NCBI GenBank assembly: GCA_964373695.1
Contig: CAYJVT010000027.1
Span: 1 to 10,316, forward strand
Source of the DNA: an uncultured archaeon
Lineage (GTDB): Archaea > Aenigmatarchaeota > Aenigmatarchaeia > GW2011-AR5
Length of the DNA: 10,316 bases
Direction: 5' to 3'
Each line of letters opens with the position of its first letter. Position 1 is the first letter of the stretch. Below are positions 1-9,066 of the stretch, piece after piece. Both the position numbers and the translations under genes were made by a program. The notes beneath the pieces were generated by a model. That model saw nothing but the letters and a program-made list of their open reading frames with translations. It searched no databases and was not told the DNA's origin.

Positions 1-95
1 TACACGCGGCCTACAATGCGTAGGACAATGGGATGCAACACCGTAAGGTGAAGCCAATCTCCTAAACCTGCGCCCAGTTCGGATCGAGGGCTGCA

Positions 96-146
96 AGATT
101 GCTAACGAACAACTATGATTATAGCAAAGCGATAGTAATCCAGCAA
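96..146 (+). other. 51-nt BHB intron in 16S rRNA (after ~A1318, h42 loop)
   Basis: Central helix GCTG 90-93/CAGC 141-144; bulges CAA 94-96 and AAA 145-147; inner stem GATTGCTA/TAGTAATC. Cutting after the 2nd nt of each bulge restores GGGCTGCA|ACTCGCCC. Confidence 0.93.
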
Positions 147-191
147 ACTCGCCCTCGTGAAGCCGGAATCCCTAGTAAGCGAAGGTCATCA

Positions 192-438
192 ATGCTGCGA
201 ATTCTTAGATGACTATCTGCAGAAAACGAAGTTTTCTGAGATTCTCAAAAACCTTCGGTTTTTTGCAGAATTTGGCGTCATGAAAAACAGAAACAGATGA
301 TTGAAGAGTATGGGCGGCTAGCGAAATAAGCAAAAACGCTCTGCGTTTGGTTTGTTTCATATGCTAGCAACGGTTTGACTCTGATGTTTCGAAATTTCAT
401 GCAAGCAGCACGATGATTTGTTTTCGCAGCACGTGAAA
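192..438 (+). other. 247-nt ORF-less BHB-type intron in 16S rRNA (after ~1363, h43 loop)
   Basis: Inner stem TGCTGCGA 193-200/TCGCAGCA 424-431; central helix TCAT 186-189/GTGA 433-436 with one extra C432 (relaxed BHB); bulges CAA and AAT; h43 stem as outer helix. Splicing gives GCGAAGGTCATCA|TCTTTCGCTGAAT. Confidence 0.9.
216..269 (+). repeat. Hairpin family A, inverted doublet inside the 16S intron
   Basis: TCTGCAGAAAAC-GAA-GTTTTCTGAGA (216-241), then T, then the reverse complement of TCTGCAAAAAACC-GAA-GGTTTTTGAGA (243-269). Confidence 0.8.
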
Positions 439-446
439 TCTTTCGC

Positions 447-484
<38 letters not shown>

Positions 485-555
485 GCCATCCGAATGAGGT
501 TTTGGTGAGGTCTGTGATGAGCAGCTCGAACCAAATCTTTGTAAGGAGGGCTAAG

Positions 556-586
556 AGATTAACGGCTGCGGCCGTTTTTCGAGCAA
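556..586 (+). other. 31-nt BHB intron in the 16S decoding region (between ~G1494 and U1495)
   Basis: Interrupts CTAAG|TCGTAACAAGG. Central helix GCTA 550-553/GAGC 581-584 (one A.G mismatch); bulges AGA and AAT; inner hairpin GATTAACGGC-TGCG-GCCGTTTTTC. Confidence 0.9.
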
Positions 587-651
587 TCGTAACAAGGTAG
601 CCGTACGGGAACGTGCGGCTGGATCACCTCCTATATTTTTTCAACTCAAAG

Positions 652-679: not shown

Positions 680-804
680 AAGGTTGGAAAAATCATCGAC
701 TTCGTGTGCCGTCAGTTACCTTACTGACGTCCTGATAGGTGCCAAATTGCGGAAGCCGAGGCTTCCGTCCGCTCAAGCGGCTCGCGCTTTCCATTCTGAT
801 ATTT

Positions 805-1980
805 ATGGATTTCAACAAGGCGTCTTTAGACGCCCACAGGGAAAAGAAGGGCAAGATAGAAATAGTGCCGAAGATGCGCGCCACCGACAGGGAATCTCTT
901 TCTATTGCCTACACTCCAGGAGTTGCCGCGGTCAGCAGGGCGATAGCGGCCGACAGGAAGGCTGTCTGGGACTATACGATAAAGCAGAACACGATAGCGG
1001 TCGTCACCGACGGCTCTGCAGTGCTCGGCTTAGGAAACGTAGGAGCAGAGGCCGCGCTGCCTGTGATGGAAGGAAAATGCATGATTTTCAAGGAAATGGC
1101 GGGCGTGGACGCGTTTCCAATATGCCTGGCGACGCAGGACGCCGGCGAGATAATATCCATCGTCAGGAACATGGCGCCGACATTCGGAGGCATAAACCTG
1201 GAGGACATAGCGGCGCCGAAGTGCTTCGAGATAGAGGCGGCCCTGCAGGACCTTGGCATACCAGTGATGCATGACGACCAGCACGCCACCTCAATAGTGA
1301 TACAGGCCGCGCTGCAGAACGCTGCCGGCATTGTCGGAAAGAGGATAGAGGAGCTGAAAGTCGTCATAAACGGCGCCGGAGCGGCCGGCATATCGACTGC
1401 ACGCATGCTCAAATGCATAAACATTGACAACAGCGTCTGCACATCGGTTGCGGACATAATAGTTTGCGACAGCAAAGGCACACTCCACAAAGGCAGGAAT
1501 GGCATGAACGTATACAAGCAGGATATCGCCAGGTATACGAACAGGAATATAGTGAAGGGCGGTCTAGCCGAAGCAGTGAAGGATGCAGACGTCTTCATAG
1601 GACTTTCGGCCGCCGGAGCGCTTACCAAGGAGATGGTGAAGAGTATGGCGGACGGGCCGATAATATTCGCGATGGCCAACCCCGTGCCGGAGATAATGCC
1701 ACAGGATGCGCTGGACGCCGGAGCTGCCATAGTCGGTACAGGCCGGAGCGACTTCCCGAACCAGATAAACAATGTGCTCGCTTTTCCCGGTATCTTCAGA
1801 GGGGCGCTCGACGCCAAGGCGACCAGGATAACGGAAGAAATGAAGATAGCGGCGGCTCACGCTCTTGCGAGAGCCGTGAAGCCTGCCAAAGACAAGATAC
1901 TGCCGCATGCGACCGACAAAGGGTATGTGAAGGATATAGCGGATGCGGTCATGAAGGCCGCGACAGATGTAAGAGATTAA
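805..1980 (+). CDS. mae: NAD(P)-dependent malic enzyme (short, unfused type), 391 aa
   Basis: Motifs AYTPGVA, VVTDGSAVLGLG, MEGK, INLEDI, HDDQH, INGAGAAG (Rossmann), FAMANP, TGRSDFPNQINN. Start placed at ATG 805 rather than GTG 739 because the 22-aa extension lies in hairpin-rich spacer. Confidence 0.96.
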   Translation: MDFNKASLDAHREKKGKIEIVPKMRATDRESLSIAYTPGVAAVSRAIAADRKAVWDYTIKQNTIAVVTDGSAVLGLGNVGAEAALPVMEGKCMIFKEMAGVDAFPICLATQDAGEIISIVRNMAPTFGGINLEDIAAPKCFEIEAALQDLGIPVMHDDQHATSIVIQAALQNAAGIVGKRIEELKVVINGAGAAGISTARMLKCINIDNSVCTSVADIIVCDSKGTLHKGRNGMNVYKQDIARYTNRNIVKGGLAEAVKDADVFIGLSAAGALTKEMVKSMADGPIIFAMANPVPEIMPQDALDAGAAIVGTGRSDFPNQINNVLAFPGIFRGALDAKATRITEEMKIAAAHALARAVKPAKDKILPHATDKGYVKDIADAVMKAATDVRD

Positions 1981-2051
1981 AATATTCAACCAAAATAATT
2001 ACAGTGATTTGAATGAATAGGGGTTCGAGAGATTTTTTTGAGGTGGTCAAA

Positions 2052-2438
2052 ATGAAAACATTGAGACAGACAGTGATTTTCAAGGCAAGTCCAAAGATCG
2101 TATACAATATGCTGATGGACTCCAAGAAGCACTCGGCATTCACCGGCGCGCCGGCGAAGATAAGCAAAAGAGTTGGCGGCAAAATCATCGCCTATGACGG
2201 CTACGTAGAAGGCAAGAATCTGGAGCTGAAAGATGGCAAGAAAATAGTCCAGAAATGGCGCGGCTCCGAATGGCCAAAGGGGCATTTCTCAACCGCGACC
2301 TTTGTTCTCGAGAAATCCGGCAGCGGAACAAAACTTATCTTTATCCAAGAAGGCGTTCCGGAAGACAGCTATGCCATGATAAGCAAAGGCTGGAAGGAAC
2401 ATTACTGGGACAAGATGAAGAAAATTCTTGAGAAATGA
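2052..2438 (+). CDS. SRPBCC/AHSA1 (activator of Hsp90 ATPase homolog 1-like) domain protein, 128 aa
   Basis: Pattern ASPKIVYNML.D...HSAFTG...VGG...YDG..G..LEL..GKKIVQKWR..EW...ST.TF.LE..G.GTKL...QEGVP......GW..HYW. SD GAGGTGG at 2040-2046 supports ATG 2052. Confidence 0.9.
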   Translation: MKTLRQTVIFKASPKIVYNMLMDSKKHSAFTGAPAKISKRVGGKIIAYDGYVEGKNLELKDGKKIVQKWRGSEWPKGHFSTATFVLEKSGSGTKLIFIQEGVPEDSYAMISKGWKEHYWDKMKKILEK

Positions 2439-2459: not shown

Positions 2460-2520
2460 CATTAAAAAATAATTTCTCACTACGGGCCGATAGATCAATT
2501 GGAAGATCGCTTGCTTTGCA

Positions 2521-2615
2521 CGAACTTTTTGGAAAAATCTGCAAAGAACGAAAGTTCTTTGAGATATTGAAGGAACTGGTTCCTTCAAAGAAGTTCGACC
2601 AAAAATTTCCGAACT
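2521..2615 (+). other. 95-nt BHB intron of tRNA-Ala, canonical position 37/38
   Basis: Central helix TTTG 2515-2518/CGAA 2610-2613; bulges CAC 2519-2521 and CTA 2614-2616; inner stem GAA.TTTTTGG/CCAAAAA.TTC. Confidence 0.95.
2538..2591 (+). repeat. Hairpin family A copy plus degenerate inverted partner in the tRNA intron
   Basis: TCTGCAAAGAAC-GAAA-GTTCTTTGAGA (2538-2564), then the hairpin TTGAAGGAAC-TG-GTTCCTTCAA (2567-2588) with a similar AAGGAAC/GTTCCTT stem. Confidence 0.7.
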
Positions 2616-2658
2616 AGCAAGAGGCTGGGGGTTCGAGTCCCCCTCGGTCCACCTAACC

Positions 2659-3018: not shown

Positions 3019-3089
3019 TTACAGGTCCGGAACAAAGATAGTTAGCTCCCATGCTATCTGGCGGATGGCTTGGCTCGATTGGCGACGAA

Positions 3090-3152
3090 AAAGAATTAAC
3101 CCAAGACTGAAATTGTTGAATTTCTGAGGAATATGGGCTAATTCTTCGTCAT
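3090..3152 (+). other. 63-nt BHB intron in 23S (after ~A53)
   Basis: Central helix GACG 3084-3087/CGTC 3147-3150; bulges AAA and ATG; inner stem AAGAATTA/TAATTCTT. Splicing restores GGCGACGAA|GGTCGTGG. Confidence 0.94.
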
Positions 3153-3830
3153 GGTCGTGGCAAGCTGCGAAAAGCCCCGGGAAGACGCATGCAGTCTTCG
3201 AACCGGGGATTGCCGAATGGGACATCCCATTAATTCGCGACGCAAGTTGCGAAGGCGAACGCCCAGAATCAAAGCATTCTAGTAAGGGCAGGAAAAGAAA
3301 GCAAAAGCGATTCCCTTAGTAACGGCGAGTAAAAAGGGAACAGAACAAACCGAAGCTCCGCAGAAATGCGGCAGCAATGTGGTGTTTGGACCCGGGCTTG
3401 GCTTAACCCGCGCATCCGAAGTCTTCTGGAAAGAAGCGCATTACAGAGTGACAGCCTCGTAGGAGAAGGCGGGAAAGTTGATACCGGGTATCCAGAGTAT
3501 GGTTCCTTGGATTTGGAGCCAGAATACGGGTCGCATCTAGACCTAATTCTAAATACTGAATCGAGTCCGATAGCGTATTAGTAAGGCGACTGAACGTTGA
3601 AAAGTAGCCGTAAAAGGCGTTGAAAAGAGTCTGAACCCAGGTAGCTATAGTTAGTCGGGTAAGGCCGCCGCAAGGCGGAAGAATCCGACGTACGTTTTGA
3701 AAAACGTGGCAGGGAGTTTTTTCTCGTGGCAAGGCTAACCCTTCTGGGGGCAGCCGTAGCGAAAGCGATTGCGCGCAGGCAACAAGGCGCACCGTGCGAA
3801 AACGCGGAAGTCACGGGATAAAGACCCGAA

Positions 3831-4655
3831 AACTTGGGAGTGAGTAGAGGTTTGTTGAAAATAACCACTTTTCACGCGCTCTTGGCAAAGAGGTATTAAA
3901 GTGAAAAGCAAATGTTCCTATGCAAAACAGAGAAATTCTTTTGTCAAGATTGATAGGATTGCTCCTAACAGATGGCAGCCTGTATCAGAATAAAAAAATA
4001 AAAGGCTGGAGAATTTCCTTTATTTCCAGTTCAGAAGAACTTGTTTTCGAATTTGAAAGATTGGCTTTTGATTTGTTCAACATCAAATTCAAGAAAAGTT
4101 TTTATAAAGGTGCATTTGAAGTAAAGCATTCTATAAAAAAAGAATTTGTAGAAGAACTGGTAAGATATTCTCCAACATACAGAACACTTTCCAAAGAAGG
4201 CAAGGAAACAGAAGCACGAATACCAGAATTTATATGGCATCAACCGGTTCTTTCAAGAGAATTTCTCAAATATGCATTCACAGGAGATGGAACAATAATC
4301 CTCAATATAGGAAAAGCAAAATACGGCTTTAGGTTTGACAGGTGTGTAAAATTATATTGCAAACATACAAGTCTTCGAAAGCAATATTTTGAGCTTCTGA
4401 AAAAACTGAATTTTGAGCCTGTTATGCTAAAAGATTCAGTCTTATTGAGAAAACAAGAAAATATGACAAAATTTTCACAAGAAATAGGTTTTGTAGAAGG
4501 CGTTGAGATTTCAGGAAATGGCTTATGGAAAGGAATAATGAAATCAAATCTCCTGAAATTCACATCAAACTCGTATAGTCTGAAGCCTAAAATGCTAGGA
4601 AAAACAAAAGATGATATTCATACAAACCTTGTAAACCTCATTCCCAAGTCGGGCG
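3831..4655 (+). mobile_element. 825-nt BHB intron in 23S (after ~A676) encoding a homing endonuclease
   Basis: Central helix CCCG 3825-3828/CGGG 4650-4653; bulges AAA and CGA; 13-bp inner stem 3832-3844/4637-4649. Splicing restores GACCCGAA|ACCAGATGATCTAG. Confidence 0.95.
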
Positions 4656-4669
4656 ACCAGATGATCTAG
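3920..4669 (+). CDS. Double-motif LAGLIDADG homing endonuclease (intron-encoded)
   Basis: Motif 1 LIGLLLTDGSL; motif 2 FLKYAFTGDGTI, preceded by the typical IPEFI linker; AT-rich and Lys-rich. The ORF runs past the 3' splice site. Confidence 0.92.
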   Translation: MQNREILLSRLIGLLLTDGSLYQNKKIKGWRISFISSSEELVFEFERLAFDLFNIKFKKSFYKGAFEVKHSIKKEFVEELVRYSPTYRTLSKEGKETEARIPEFIWHQPVLSREFLKYAFTGDGTIILNIGKAKYGFRFDRCVKLYCKHTSLRKQYFELLKKLNFEPVMLKDSVLLRKQENMTKFSQEIGFVEGVEISGNGLWKGIMKSNLLKFTSNSYSLKPKMLGKTKDDIHTNLVNLIPKSGDQMI

Positions 4670-4730
4670 TCCTTGGCAGAGTGAAGCTTTGCGAAAGCAG
4701 AGTGGAGGCTCGATACCGGTTATGGTACAA

Positions 4731-4825
4731 TTTTAGTAAGAGCCATATTAGCGTCAACTAGTGAATCTCAAATAGCAATCTACATTTACTGGACGAGGTC
4801 ACAGATGTTTTTACTAGAAGTACAA
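4731..4825 (+). other. 95-nt BHB-type intron in the 23S H35 loop (~752-754)
   Basis: Central helix GTAC 4725-4728/GTAC 4820-4823; inner stem TTTTAGTAA/TTACTAGAA; 3' bulge AAA; the 5' bulge is relaxed. Removal restores GGTT-ATGGTACA-AACC. GTACAA flanks both ends, so the junction is sequence-ambiguous. Confidence 0.85.
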
Positions 4826-5687
4826 ACCTTTCGGGTGACCTAGGACTAGGGGTGAAAAGCCAATCGAATCTGGTAATAGCTGGTTCCTCTCGAGATGCAT
4901 CTAAGTGCAGCCTCGGCGAGTTCGGCTGGTGGGGTAGAGCACTGATTAAACAGCCAAGGGGAGAGATCCCCAACTGTTTTGTCAAACTCCGAATCCATTA
5001 GCATAATCGCCGGGAGTGAGGGTATCTGGAGTAATTTTGATATCCGAAAGGGAAAGAACCCAGACTGCAGTTAAGGTCCCTTAGTGCTGATTAAGTGTAT
5101 CGAAAGCGGTCTAAAACTTTAGACAGTGGGAAGGTTGGCTTAGAAGCAGCCATCCTTTAAACAACGCGTAATAGCGGACCCACCGAAGTTTTGGGCGCTA
5201 AAAATGGACGGGGCTAAATCAGCCACCGATACTGCGGACGTACTGCTTGCAGTGCGTGATAGAGAGGCGTCCTGCGTGGGCAGAAGCGTCCCCGTAAGGG
5301 GGCGTGGACCGCGCAGAAATGAAGATCCTGCCGGGAGTAGCATACGAGTCAGGCGAAAATCCTGACCGCCTGAGGGGCAAGGGTTCCCCAGTAAAGCTTA
5401 TCTGCTGGGGGTAAGTCGATCCTAACCGATGTCTTAGGAAGAGCATCGGGAATCAGGGAATGGAGTTAATATTCTCCAACCTGACAATGCGTTCTGTATC
5501 TTGGACGCTTCGGGATAACTCAAGCACGATTGTCTTCGTGTCTAAGTACTTAATCCGAGGGAGTGCTGTAATGGCGAGAACTTGGAGAATGTACGAATGG
5601 CCTGGTGTATGCCGGGTTTGGGCGATTCCTGGAGCCCGTGAAAACTTAATGCAGGCATAGCATTGTCTGATCGTACTCAGAACCGAC

Positions 5688-6095
5688 AAAGGCGAGGCTT
5701 CAACACAGAAATCTATGAATATCGAGGCGTACCTAGAGTCGACTACGAAACTGTCGATTTTTGAATATGCTGATGAGATAGACAAGGATTTTAGAGAACA
5801 AACAAGAGCAACAGGAATTTTGTTACCACAAAAATTCAATGAGAATTTGTTGAAAATAATAAAGATGAATGAGACAAATTTTCAAGAATTCTCGAAATCT
5901 TTTGGGTATACAGACAAACAATTTAGAATATGGAGAGAAGGCAAAGCTGCAATACCGCTTAAAGTATTGACAGAAATTTGGAAGAAAGCTGAAATAAATA
6001 TAGAAGACTTAGAAAAATATATTGAAAATTATTTTAGAGTTTTTGGCGTGGTCATTGACATAAAAAATATAGTTTGAAGTTCTCGTCTTCGGGAA
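5688..6095 (+). mobile_element. 408-nt BHB intron in 23S (after ~C1615) with an HTH-protein ORF
   Basis: Inner stem 5689-5703/6074-6089; central helix ACCG/CGGG (one A.G mismatch); bulges ACA and AAA. Splicing restores AACCGAC|ACAGGTGCCCC. Confidence 0.92.
5715..6077 (+). CDS. Intron-encoded 120-aa protein with an XRE/Cro-like helix-turn-helix; no LAGLIDADG motif
   Basis: NFQEFSKSFGYTDKQFRIWREGKAAIPLKVLTEIWKKAEINIEDL fits the HTH_XRE pattern. The uninterrupted ORF fills 363 of the 408 intron nt, with composition like the other intron ORFs. Confidence 0.75.
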   Translation: MNIEAYLESTTKLSIFEYADEIDKDFREQTRATGILLPQKFNENLLKIIKMNETNFQEFSKSFGYTDKQFRIWREGKAAIPLKVLTEIWKKAEINIEDLEKYIENYFRVFGVVIDIKNIV

Positions 6096-6114
6096 ACAGG
6101 TGCCCCTCGCTGAG

Positions 6115-6159
6115 ATTCGAAGAGCGGATGCTCTTGATTTTCCGTTCTTCGAACAGAAA
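6115..6159 (+). other. 45-nt BHB intron in 23S (after ~G1633)
   Basis: 13-bp inner stem 6116-6128/6141-6153; central helix GCTG/CAGA (one G.A mismatch); bulges AGA and AAA. Splicing restores CGCTGAG|AAGGCG. Confidence 0.92.
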
Positions 6160-6287
6160 AAGGCGAAGGTGTTCTGGAGAATCCACTTTAGGGAACTCGG
6201 CAAAATAGCCCGGTATCTTCGGTAGAACGGGTGCCTGCTTAGTGATAAGCAGGTCGCAGTGACAAGTTCCATCGGACTGTTTAACAA

Positions 6288-6375
6288 ACAGGAAGAGGTG
6301 TTGAAGAAAAACTGCTATAGCTACCGCTCGAAAGAGCCAGTCCGTAGCAGCATGTATCATCTCTCTCTGGTTGAT
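6288..6375 (+). other. 88-nt BHB intron in 23S (after ~A1784)
   Basis: Central helix TAAC 6282-6285/GTTG 6370-6373; bulges AAA and ATA; inner stem 6289-6300/6358-6369. Splicing restores CTGTTTAACAA|AAACGTAG. Confidence 0.93.
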
Positions 6376-6629
6376 AAACGTAGCCGGCTGCTAAATCGAA
6401 AGGTCTTGTATAGCCGGTGAGTCGTGGCCACTAGCGGTGTGTTAAAACTGGTTTCAACCGGTCTAAGCCCCGCTGTAGGCCGGCCCTAACTCTGAGGGTC
6501 TTAAGGTGAAATTTGTTGCCTTAGTAAAATTTGGCTGTATGCTGGAACGTCCAAAATTTTCAGGTCCTGAGAAAGGAACAACCCTGAAAGGATGTGGACA
6601 ATCAGCAGGAAACCGTGAGGTGAGAAACC

Positions 6630-7124
6630 ATGAAAATGCCGAAAATAAAATATAGAAATTATTACCTTCTTGGATTCACAGATGCAGAAGGCTGTTTCAG
6701 TATTTCTCTGAAAAGGGAAGATACAGCAAGATTTGGATGGGCTTTGGATCCCCTATTTCAAATAACACAGCATAAAACAAATAGAGAAATTCTAGAGATC
6801 TTTCAAAACGAACTAAATTGCGGCAGAATAATAGAAAAATCTGGACAACCAGATTTGTTATTATATCTTGTCGACAATCGAAGACAACTTGTTGAAAAAA
6901 TAATACCTTTTTTTGAGAGGAACAGACTGATGGCAAAATATAACGACTTTGATAAATTCAAGGGAGTTGTAGAAGGCCTTGAAAACAAACTGCATCACAA
7001 AAAAGACACTTTTATCAACTTAATCAGAAAGTGTTATGAAATGAATCTTGAAGGCAAACAAAGAAGATACAAGCTAGAAGAAGTCATTGAGGATATCAAA
7101 AAACGGAATCCCCAGAGACTATAA
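6630..7124 (+). CDS. Single-motif LAGLIDADG homing endonuclease (I-CreI/I-CpaI-like), 164 aa
   Basis: YLLGFTDAEGCFSISL, F.ITQH...EIL..F...LNCGRI, IIPFF; SD GAGGTGA at 6617-6623. The C-terminus overlaps the ribozyme R element. Confidence 0.96.
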   Translation: MKMPKIKYRNYYLLGFTDAEGCFSISLKREDTARFGWALDPLFQITQHKTNREILEIFQNELNCGRIIEKSGQPDLLLYLVDNRRQLVEKIIPFFERNRLMAKYNDFDKFKGVVEGLENKLHHKKDTFINLIRKCYEMNLEGKQRRYKLEEVIEDIKKRNPQRL

Positions 7125-7234
7125 GCCAAACACGAAGCAGAGCGATAGCATCACTGCTTTTGTGAAGATATAGTCCGAACCTTGCAGTAATGCAAGGAGA
7201 TTTACAGAAATGTAAATCCGCTTCAAAATAGTTC

Positions 7235-7258
7235 AACGCACTTATGTGCGTTGGTCTG
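7235..7258 (+). repeat. Hairpin family B copy in the P9 extension of the group I intron
   Basis: AACGCAC-TTAT-GTGCGTT-GGTCTG. Confidence 0.8.
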
Positions 7259-7792
7259 TTAAGGAGTCCTAAAGTAACAGCTTGAGCGTAATCCCTTGCC
7301 ATTTAAATGATGGCCTGCATGATGGATTAACCAGATGGAAACTGTCCCGAAGTGGACCCAGGCGAAACCATTGTTCTGGTGATTAGGCCAGAGACCTCCA
7401 GTGGGAAGAGTAGACCCCGTGGAGCTTTACTGCAGTTTGTTGTTGTAGTATGGAAGGGACTGTAGAGCGTAGGTAGGAGGTGTCGAAGCTTTCTCGCAAG
7501 AGAGAGTGGAGCCAACAATGTAACACTACCCTTTTTCATCTATACTGCTTATACCGAAAGGTAGACATCAACAGATAGGCAGTTTGACTGGGGCGGTACG
7601 CCTTTGAAAAGATATCAAAGGCCCTCTAAGCTCGACTCATTCCGGTCAGAAATCGGAAGGAAGAGTGCAAACGCAAAAGTCGGGTTGATTGGACTCTTAA
7701 CATAATAGTGTCCAACCGCGAAAGCGTGAGTTAGCGAGACGCAGTTCGGCCTAGATGGCTGTCTGTGGTATGAGAAAAGCTACCCCGGGGAT

Positions 7793-8390
7793 AGATCTAT
7801 AAGCGTCTGTTAATAAATCAAGTTGATGCTGGAGAAAGGATTTGTCTTTGGAGCAAGCTATGACGGAATTGTCTATCACCGTGAAGAGAAAAATGAATAT
7901 GGCTTAGAAATAGACCAGAAATCTCTTTTATGGTTGAAGATAGTTCAAAAATACTTGCAGAAAGCTTATCGTAAAAACTCTAAGATTAGAAAAACAAAAA
8001 GAGGTTACTTTAGATTGAATGTATATTCTAAAGATCTTTATAACGAACTAAAAAAACTTCACGAAAATCCGCATTTAATCTTAGAGCAAAACGAAAAATT
8101 TCAGATAGGTTTTCTTCAAGGGATCTTTGATGCTCAAGGTAGTATTCGTTTCGAAAGAAGGCATATTACCGTGAGTTCAAATGAACCGAAAACAGCAGAG
8201 ATTGTCATTAGATTGCTTGAAAAGAATTGTATAAAAACTGGAAAACCATTCAAAGACAAAAATAACGTTATAAGTATCCCTTTCTACGGAAAAAACAATA
8301 TGTTAAAATTTAGTCGAATTATAAATTTTCGTCATCCAGAAAAGAAAGAGAGACTTGATTTGTTATTAAAATCGCTTGTAAATCCCCTAT
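7793..8390 (+). mobile_element. 598-nt BHB intron in 23S (after ~U2449) encoding a homing endonuclease
   Basis: Central helix GGGG 7787-7790/CCCT 8385-8388; bulges ATA and ATA; inner stem 7794-7805/8373-8384. Splicing gives CCGGGGAT|AATGGTGTCGT. No group I core elements are present. Confidence 0.94.
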
Positions 8391-8392
8391 AA
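7826..8392 (+). CDS. Double-motif LAGLIDADG homing endonuclease; second motif has Q in place of the acidic residue
   Basis: Motif 1 FVFGASYDGIV; motif 2 FLQGIFDAQGSI; C-terminal I.FRHPEK..RL typical of the family. Start is ATG 7826 or TTG 7823. Confidence 0.9.
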   Translation: MLEKGFVFGASYDGIVYHREEKNEYGLEIDQKSLLWLKIVQKYLQKAYRKNSKIRKTKRGYFRLNVYSKDLYNELKKLHENPHLILEQNEKFQIGFLQGIFDAQGSIRFERRHITVSSNEPKTAEIVIRLLEKNCIKTGKPFKDKNNVISIPFYGKNNMLKFSRIINFRHPEKKERLDLLLKSLVNPL

Positions 8393-8418
8393 TGGTGTCG
8401 TAGCGGGCGAGAGTTCTT

Positions 8419-8626
8419 GTCCGTATTCTTCGACATTACGGGGTTTGTAAAATATTAACCTCGGTGTCTACAAAGTACCACCAACATCGTATTACCCTCA
8501 ACTGTTAGAGTGAGCAACGAATGATTAACGCACTTCGTGCGTTGGTCTGCTTTTCCGTGAAAAACAGCGTTAGTAATACGATAAAGGTCTTTGCAGACAT
8601 AGACAAACGAAGAATCCGGAGGACAA
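8419..8626 (+). other. 208-nt ORF-less BHB intron in 23S H89 (after ~U2477)
   Basis: Central helix GTTC 8413-8416/GGAC 8621-8624; bulges TTG and AAA; inner stem 8420-8432/8608-8620; outer GA/TC. Splicing restores GAGAGTTCTT|ATCGACCCC. Confidence 0.93.
8523..8550 (+). repeat. Hairpin family B copy inside a BHB intron
   Basis: GATT-AACGCAC-TTC-GTGCGTT-GGTCTGC. Confidence 0.8.
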
Positions 8627-9066
8627 ATCGACCCCGCGTGTTGCGGCGTCGCTGTCGGCTGGCCCTCTCCTGGCTGTGCAGCAGCAGCCAAGGGTGCTGG
8701 AGTTCACAGATTAAAAGGGCACCTTAGCTGGGTTCAGAACGGTGTGAGCCAGTTTGGTCTATATCTGCTGGAGGTGTCATTGCCTGAGGGAAAAGAAGGA
8801 TAAGTACGAAAGGAACATCCTTCTGCGGCCTCTTGTGTACCAGTTGTCCGACAGGGCAGCGCTGGGTAGCTACGCCGTACGCCGATTAGAGCTGAAGGCA
8901 TCTAAGCTCGAAGCGGCTCTCGAAAATAGGCAATCGGTGCTGGCAAGACGACCAGTCATGGAACAGGGGTGTAATTACCAAGCTTCGGCGAGGTATTCAG
9001 CCCATTGTCTCCTAAACCAATGCTAACCTTTAACGTTGGGAAGCAAAGAGGATTGATGCAAAAGCT

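Follow-up and report, generated by a model that had tools for sequence, protein, structure and literature searches.

What is a 31-nt insert doing in the decoding centre of a 16S rRNA gene, and does it reach the mature ribosome? The insert occupies positions 556-586 of a 10,316-nt stretch of archaeal DNA (the whole stretch is referred to as the window), and an initial annotation had proposed that it is a BHB intron that must be removed exactly and that hides its host from 16S PCR. Our analysis leads us to consider it very probable that the insert is an archaeal BHB mini-intron, spliced by the endonuclease EndA and the ligase RtcB, and that it interrupts the only 16S gene of its DPANN host, the nearest named relative of which carries the label Ca. 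Aenigmatarchaeota. Features are collected in Table 1.

The window belongs to a 1.02 Mb assembly of 60 contigs (91% complete). It contains the 3' end of the 16S gene, the 5' part of which lies at the end of another contig of the same assembly (C12, 16799-22842, where the contig stops); the gene is thus split across two contigs. A second 16S copy was not found in this 91%-complete assembly. Within the Rfam match to SSU rRNA, helix 44 (h44) falls in a stretch of 101 nt, against 84 in the model. Positions 541-600 read ...GGGCTAAG, followed by the 31 nt of the insert and then by TCGTAACAAGGTAGCC... Aligned with the intronless relative G013 (alignment A1), the insert appears as one clean gap of 31 columns between ...GCTAAG and TCGTAAC.... 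With the E. coli 16S gene (L084, 207-1748) as numbering reference, the first base past the insert is U1495, so that the three bases before it are A1492, A1493 and G1494. Alignment to E. coli as well as to intronless relatives hence places the insert exactly between G1494 (555) and U1495 (587), in agreement with the position given in the initial annotation, and excision of 556-586 restores the universal 1492R target.

Table 1. Coordinates in the window of the features relevant to the insert, with the basis for each
Feature	Position	Strand	Basis
SSU rRNA 3' end	1-634	+	Rfam match
Helix 44, short form, 69 nt	484-552	+	MFE folds; equal length in intronless relatives
Central helix H, exon strand GCUA, with A1492	550-553	+	Pairs with 581-584; 4/4 in 26/29 related introns
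A1492, A1493 and G1494 equivalents, final 3 bases of 5' exon	553-555	+	E. coli 16S alignment
Bulge 1 (AG/A), predicted 5' cut 555/556	554-556	+	BHB rule
31-nt insert, very probably an intron	556-586	+	31-column gap in G013; 10 related genomes intronless
Inner helix h' and hairpin	557-580	+	Fold; compensatory changes against congener; covariation across 29 introns
Central helix H, intron strand GAGC	581-584	+	Complement of exon GCU in all introns, including pattern-free finds
Best 1492R site, unspliced gene	584-602	+	Primer scan; mismatches C584, A586
Bulge 2 (AA/U), predicted 3' cut 586/587	585-587	+	BHB rule; AAU in 28/29
3' exon, U1495 to 16S 3' end, with h45 and anti-Shine-Dalgarno	587-634	+	Rfam match, alignment A1
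Intron-containing tRNA (tRNA-Ala(UGC))	2484-2651		Rfam match
Archaeal LSU rRNA	3037-9031		Rfam match; 5995 nt against 2987-position model

The insert does not carry the ribozyme core of a self-splicing group I or II intron: it is only 31 nt long, and no Rfam family besides SSU rRNA is matched in positions 1-700 (E <= 0.01). Nor is it a dispersed repeat or miniature mobile element with further genomic copies, as a blastn-short search of the assembly with the insert and its flanks returns the window copy only.

Some observations concern the surroundings of the insert. The h44 of this gene (69 nt, against about 83 nt in E. coli) has the short form that is also present in intronless relatives of the order, and in nine relatives extra hairpins are inserted at the h44 tip. 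The spacer between 16S and 23S measures 2.4 kb and is coding, since 16S is separated from tRNA-Ala/23S by two protein genes on the rRNA strand, one for a malic enzyme (PF00390 and PF03949) at 739-1980 (+) and one for an AHSA1/SRPBCC-type protein (PF08327) at 2013-2438 (+). No tRNA was detected in the window by ARAGORN, though Rfam finds the intron-containing tRNA-Ala.

To describe the geometry of the insert we used a rule for BHB motifs in which each strand contributes a 4-nt helix strand followed by a 3-nt bulge and is cut past the second bulge base. The rule recovers two other introns of the window: that of tRNA-Ala(UGC) at 2521-2615, at the canonical 37/38 site (H 4/4, h' 3, h 5), and an SSU intron at 96-146 (H 4/4, h' 8, h 2), excision of which leaves the conserved CUGCAACUCG loop. 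Applied to the insert, it yields two 3-nt bulges on opposite strands around a 4-position central helix H, made of three Watson-Crick pairs (G550-C584, C551-G583, U552-A582) and the mismatch A553.G581. The inner helix h' starts with two pairs (G557-C580, A558-U579) and continues, after a UU/UU internal loop, with a 6-bp stem (561-566/571-576) capped by a UGCG loop (567-570). The outer helix h has a single pair (G549-C588), followed by an invariant G.G, R-U and G.A. On the exon side the motif is therefore a relaxed BHB, since a strict hBHBh' motif has an outer helix of at least 2 bp, as is seen in the other two introns checked in the window (2 and 5 bp). The 'near-canonical' BHB of the initial annotation consequently needs qualification for the A.G pair (26 of the 29 related introns described below have A-U here, the other three A.G) and for the outer helix.

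Cutting at 555/556 and 586/587 joins AAG to UCGUAACAAGG, the same product that is present in the intronless relatives, and none of the other BHB-like registers nearby gives this conserved product. A plain BHB scan of positions 1-700 returns between 105 and 1742 matches depending on the stringency; such a scan is unspecific and was not used as evidence by itself, so that only the coincidence with junctions defined by the alignment counts. At fixed junctions the probability of a chance BHB match is approximately 0.6% per junction pair at the stringency of this intron, and approximately 0.1% at the 4/4 stringency reached by most relatives.

The same junction was then inspected in related genomes. 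Our same-order set comprises 61 genomes, with the 16S 3' end assembled in 30 (the host genome counted). In 10 same-order relatives the junction is uninterrupted, while a similarity search located a 31-nt insert at the same junction in three others: one of the same genus, one of the same family and one of another family. The hairpin sequences of these three inserts are unrelated, yet in all three AGC faces the exon GCU. Presence and absence are thus polymorphic within the order with precise boundaries (10 intronless against four intron-bearing genomes, the host included).

The initial annotation had also suggested a search of metagenomic 16S genes for inserts at 1494/1495, and this search was productive. 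In a pattern scan that took a single genome from each GTDB species, 14 matches were real 16S, 12 of them labelled Micrarchaeota (Micrarchaeia, Micrarchaeales, Bilamarchaeaceae) and two Aenigmatarchaeota, and seven were chance matches outside rRNA genes; the bacterial matches (L038, L041, L044, L046, L052, L055 and L056) were discarded, not being rRNA genes. Metagenomes, for which the pattern was altered slightly, contributed 26 loci. In total we count 29 distinct inserts at G1494/U1495, all of them ORF-less and between 31 and 57 nt long: five have 31-32 nt and Aenigmatarchaeota-like exons, and 24 have 42-57 nt and Micrarchaeota-like exons. The junction therefore recurs in two DPANN phyla. As both scan patterns fix TAAG and (A)GC, lineages with another exon sequence, or with a second intron close behind, are missed by them. 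Micrarchaeota-type introns at this junction (seven of them and others) also share an internal conserved AAUUUGCCAGC, which pairs with an upstream GCUGGC; this motif exceeds what a BHB needs.

The search patterns that recovered most of the 29 introns fix part of the intron 3' end, the conservation of which is therefore partly built in. The patterns leave h' free, as well as position -6 (the intron base of the fourth H pair) in both scans and the base opposite U552 in the first scan only. It is in h' that the covariation is found: for the first six pairs, 150 of the 174 cells are paired in the BHB register, and sliding one strand or the other by 1-3 nt lowers this to 54-86 of 174. Every h' position is occupied by several pair types (mostly four to six). 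An alternative register, in which h' starts from G555 and leaves a 2-nt bulge, is favoured by RNAfold for the window and for L021, the intron-bearing relative of another family; it was rejected, as it pairs 74 of the 174 cells across the 29 introns (against 150).

Comparison with the congener shows how the insert evolves. The congener has its 31-nt insert at the same place with seven substitutions (23% of positions), whereas the surrounding rRNA exons are identical in 312 of 313 positions. Two of the changes are compensatory pairs in the stem (A-U to G-C and G-C to A-U). A neighbouring ORF differs by 15.5% between the two genomes, and the insert has changed at a rate at least as high. Given these double compensations next to almost invariant exons, the insert appears to be constrained in structure only, unlike the decoding centre around it. 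The congener differs elsewhere as well: it lacks the 51-nt BHB intron at 96-146 (in the loop around 1318 of 16S), with flanking exons that are the same bar two alignment-gap columns in 1-96, which points to a recent gain or loss of that intron within the genus.

Introns at a neighbouring site provide a natural control. In three relatives an intron of 31-37 nt is located 2 nt upstream, at A1492/A1493; among the sequence-equivalent boundaries that one alone yields a BHB (H 4/4, h' 8-10), in which the exon bases complementary to the intron strand also lie 2 nt further upstream. The complementary strand thus shifts along with the junction, which supports the BHB reading. A further site is found at about 1500/1501 (TCGTAA/.../ACAAGG) in 14 relatives, but not in the window itself. 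Its introns split the same 1492R target in the same archaeal group; they differ from those at 1494/1495 (31-57 nt, ORF-less) in lying approximately 6 nt downstream, in their length of 30-900 nt and in the presence of a conserved core and of some ORFs (long in three relatives). Many of them share in this core GGGCGATTTGAT and GATGA and CTGA motifs, which resemble C/D boxes.

The genes for the splicing machinery are present in the host genome. A single EndA was detected (contig C2, 46162-46746; 194 aa, with N-terminal and catalytic domains, PF02778 and PF01974). Among solved structures it is closest to the M. jannaschii alpha4 enzyme (1A79, E 2e-35) and is therefore alpha4-like. RtcB is encoded on contig C31 (6291-9113) as a single open frame of 989 aa; the family match falls into two pieces (positions 1-51 and 48-426) that are approximately 1.45 kb apart, and judging from this arrangement the gene is probably interrupted by an intein. 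The proposal that the insert is a BHB intron in need of exact removal is accordingly backed by the junction, the covariation, the relatives and the EndA and RtcB genes, from which we infer splicing itself.

From these features we also infer how cleavage and ligation may be ordered relative to the folding of h44. In the pre-rRNA, GCUA at the h44 end (including A1492) would pair with GAGC of the intron rather than with the h44 5' strand. This would create the 4-position central helix and its two 3-nt bulges, closed on one side by the intron hairpin and on the other by G549-C588. EndA would capture this alternative fold and make both cuts, after which RtcB would join the exons to AAG/UCG, the universal decoding-centre sequence. 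The freed 31-nt intron would probably be circular, and the base of h44 would close after splicing. In the minimum-energy fold, as in mature rRNA, 549-552 (G549 together with 1489-1491, i.e. G550-U552) pair with 484-487; because the central helix takes 1489-1492 of the h44 3' strand, the BHB and the h44 base are mutually exclusive. A nearest-neighbour model places the BHB conformer 7-10 kcal/mol above the h44-closed fold, and the h44 5' strand is transcribed first, which also speaks against the BHB conformer. The single outer pair, the A.G that this genus has within its central helix and the alpha4-like EndA likewise argue against an easy reaction; EndA of the alpha4 type is regarded as strict for canonical BHBs (PMC5829648). 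The locus offers a clean natural substrate for studying the action of an alpha4-like EndA on a BHB whose outer helix is nearly absent and which must compete with a native rRNA helix.

Could the 31 nt instead remain in the mature 16S, as a small expansion hairpin protruding at the base of h44? The insert does fold stably on its own, the minimum-energy structure is precisely h44 closed with the hairpin protruding, and Sakai et al. describe the splicing of a Micrarchaeota 16S insertion as uncertain (PMC8784108). A retained hairpin is nevertheless difficult to reconcile with the divergence of the insert between congeners next to near-identical exons, with the 10 relatives that do without it, and with selection that keeps the exon-complementary strand in the exact BHB register and moves it along with the junction. 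Positions 1494-1495, moreover, are part of bridge B2a, next to A1492/A1493. All in all we judge retention to be very unlikely.

Even less probable, in our opinion, is that the insert is cut out while the ends are not rejoined, resulting in a 16S rRNA in two fragments (1-1494 and a 3' piece of 48 nt) in the manner of bacterial intervening sequences. In favour of it, fragmented rRNAs occur in other organisms, and the RtcB gene contains an apparent intein. The RtcB open frame is intact, however, and is needed by the many tRNA and rRNA introns of the genome. Moreover, a nick by colicin E3 at A1493/G1494, just one bond away, inactivates ribosomes, for which reason sealing by RtcB seems necessary. 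We give least credit of all, close to none, to an assembly or sequencing artefact or a dead gene copy. The 60-contig metagenome-assembled genome with its 16S gene split over two contigs might raise such a suspicion, but the homologous insert of the congener, with its seven substitutions and compensatory changes, and the 29 inserts from independent genomes and metagenomes show that it is no quirk of one assembly; a dead copy is furthermore at odds with the conserved exons and with the failure to find a second 16S gene in the 91%-complete assembly.

It might be argued that introns at G1494/U1495 and A1492/A1493 are not merely tolerated selfish relics and form a built-in late checkpoint, for which the junction has been kept or repeatedly re-acquired in two DPANN phyla. 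We regard this as an unlikely though conceivable reading. If true, the BHB would sequester 1489-1492 and exclude the h44 base, and there would be no working A site before EndA and RtcB have acted.

The consequences for PCR were evaluated with a primer scan. As the initial annotation had stated, the 1492R target is split, with C584 and A586 opposing the 3'-terminal and third-last bases of the primer; genomic DNA of intron-bearing lineages therefore presents 1492R with a 3'-terminal mismatch. The accompanying claim that full-length 16S PCR on DNA misses the organism is correct as well, but this is not due to the present intron alone. The Arch21F site is located at C12:16800, which gives a span of at least 6.6 kb to the 1492R site in the window. 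No 515F site was found with up to 4 mismatches in the 5' part of the 16S gene (C12:16800-22842, more than 6 kb), and those of 806R and Arch915R show 3 mismatches apiece, in both cases with one end of the target disrupted, a pattern that fits introns around 781 and 908. Primer 1391R has an unbroken target, and 1525R is mismatched at a single position, its last base. With a gene of this length and other primer sites broken, the outcome is over-determined: whether or not this intron were present, standard amplicon surveys would overlook the organism. The other half of the claim, that cDNA would be amplified, stands, since splicing would leave perfect targets for Arch21F and 1492R in the rRNA. It has been stated before that DPANN escape primers through introns in their 16S genes (PMC7906910); pipelines that strip inserts of 10 bp and longer, as was done in that study, in turn hide introns such as the one described here.

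Several known systems resemble this insert in part. The canonical pre-tRNA BHB intron, represented in the window by that of tRNA-Ala (37/38), has the same 3-4-3 geometry, the same cut rule and the same enzymes; it differs in its outer helix of 5 bp, which comes from the anticodon stem, whereas the 16S insert has 1 bp and an rRNA host. In eukaryotes, SSU rDNA has nuclear group I introns close to its 3' end, at sites around 1506-1516. They share with the present introns a concentration at the conserved, functionally central 3' end of the SSU, but they are self-splicing ribozymes of hundreds of nt, unlike the 31-nt insert, which lacks an Rfam match of its own and is predicted to depend on protein enzymes.

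Small BHB introns in 16S genes are in themselves a known kind. Jay & Inskeep (2015) described hairpin BHB introns shorter than 50 nt in 16S genes of Thermoproteales, Desulfurococcales and Aigarchaeota, and catalogued 13 loci: 374, 548, 722, 781, 803, 901, 908, 919, 978, 1093, 1205, 1213 and 1391 (PMC4496867). According to a paper from 2022, 16S insertions were known only in Crenarchaeota, Aigarchaeota and ARMAN-type Micrarchaeota (PMC8784108). In the literature searched, the coverage of which is incomplete so that novelty is not proven, we found no description of an intron at 1494/1495, at 1492/1493 or in h44. What is added here is thus the site G1494/U1495, which we did not find catalogued, and its recurrence in at least two DPANN phyla indicates that the list of 13 published archaeal 16S loci is incomplete. 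The site places an intron that is predicted to be spliced by proteins one bond away from A1492/A1493, the pair by which the codon-anticodon helix is read; in some relatives it separates these two bases.

The 31-nt insert is considerably like the introns of Jay & Inskeep (PMC4496867): both are ORF-less hairpins of less than 50 nt that lie in highly conserved stretches of 16S and interrupt 'universal' primer sites, and both form a BHB where they are inserted, with EndA and RtcB as the enzymes of removal (as predicted here). The differences concern location, hosts and structure. None of the 13 catalogued loci is situated in h44 or at 1492-1495, and the hosts of the present introns are mesophilic DPANN (Aenigmatarchaeota-like and Micrarchaeota-like). 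Finally, the central helix of the present introns is built from a strand of h44, so that formation of the BHB excludes the native fold.
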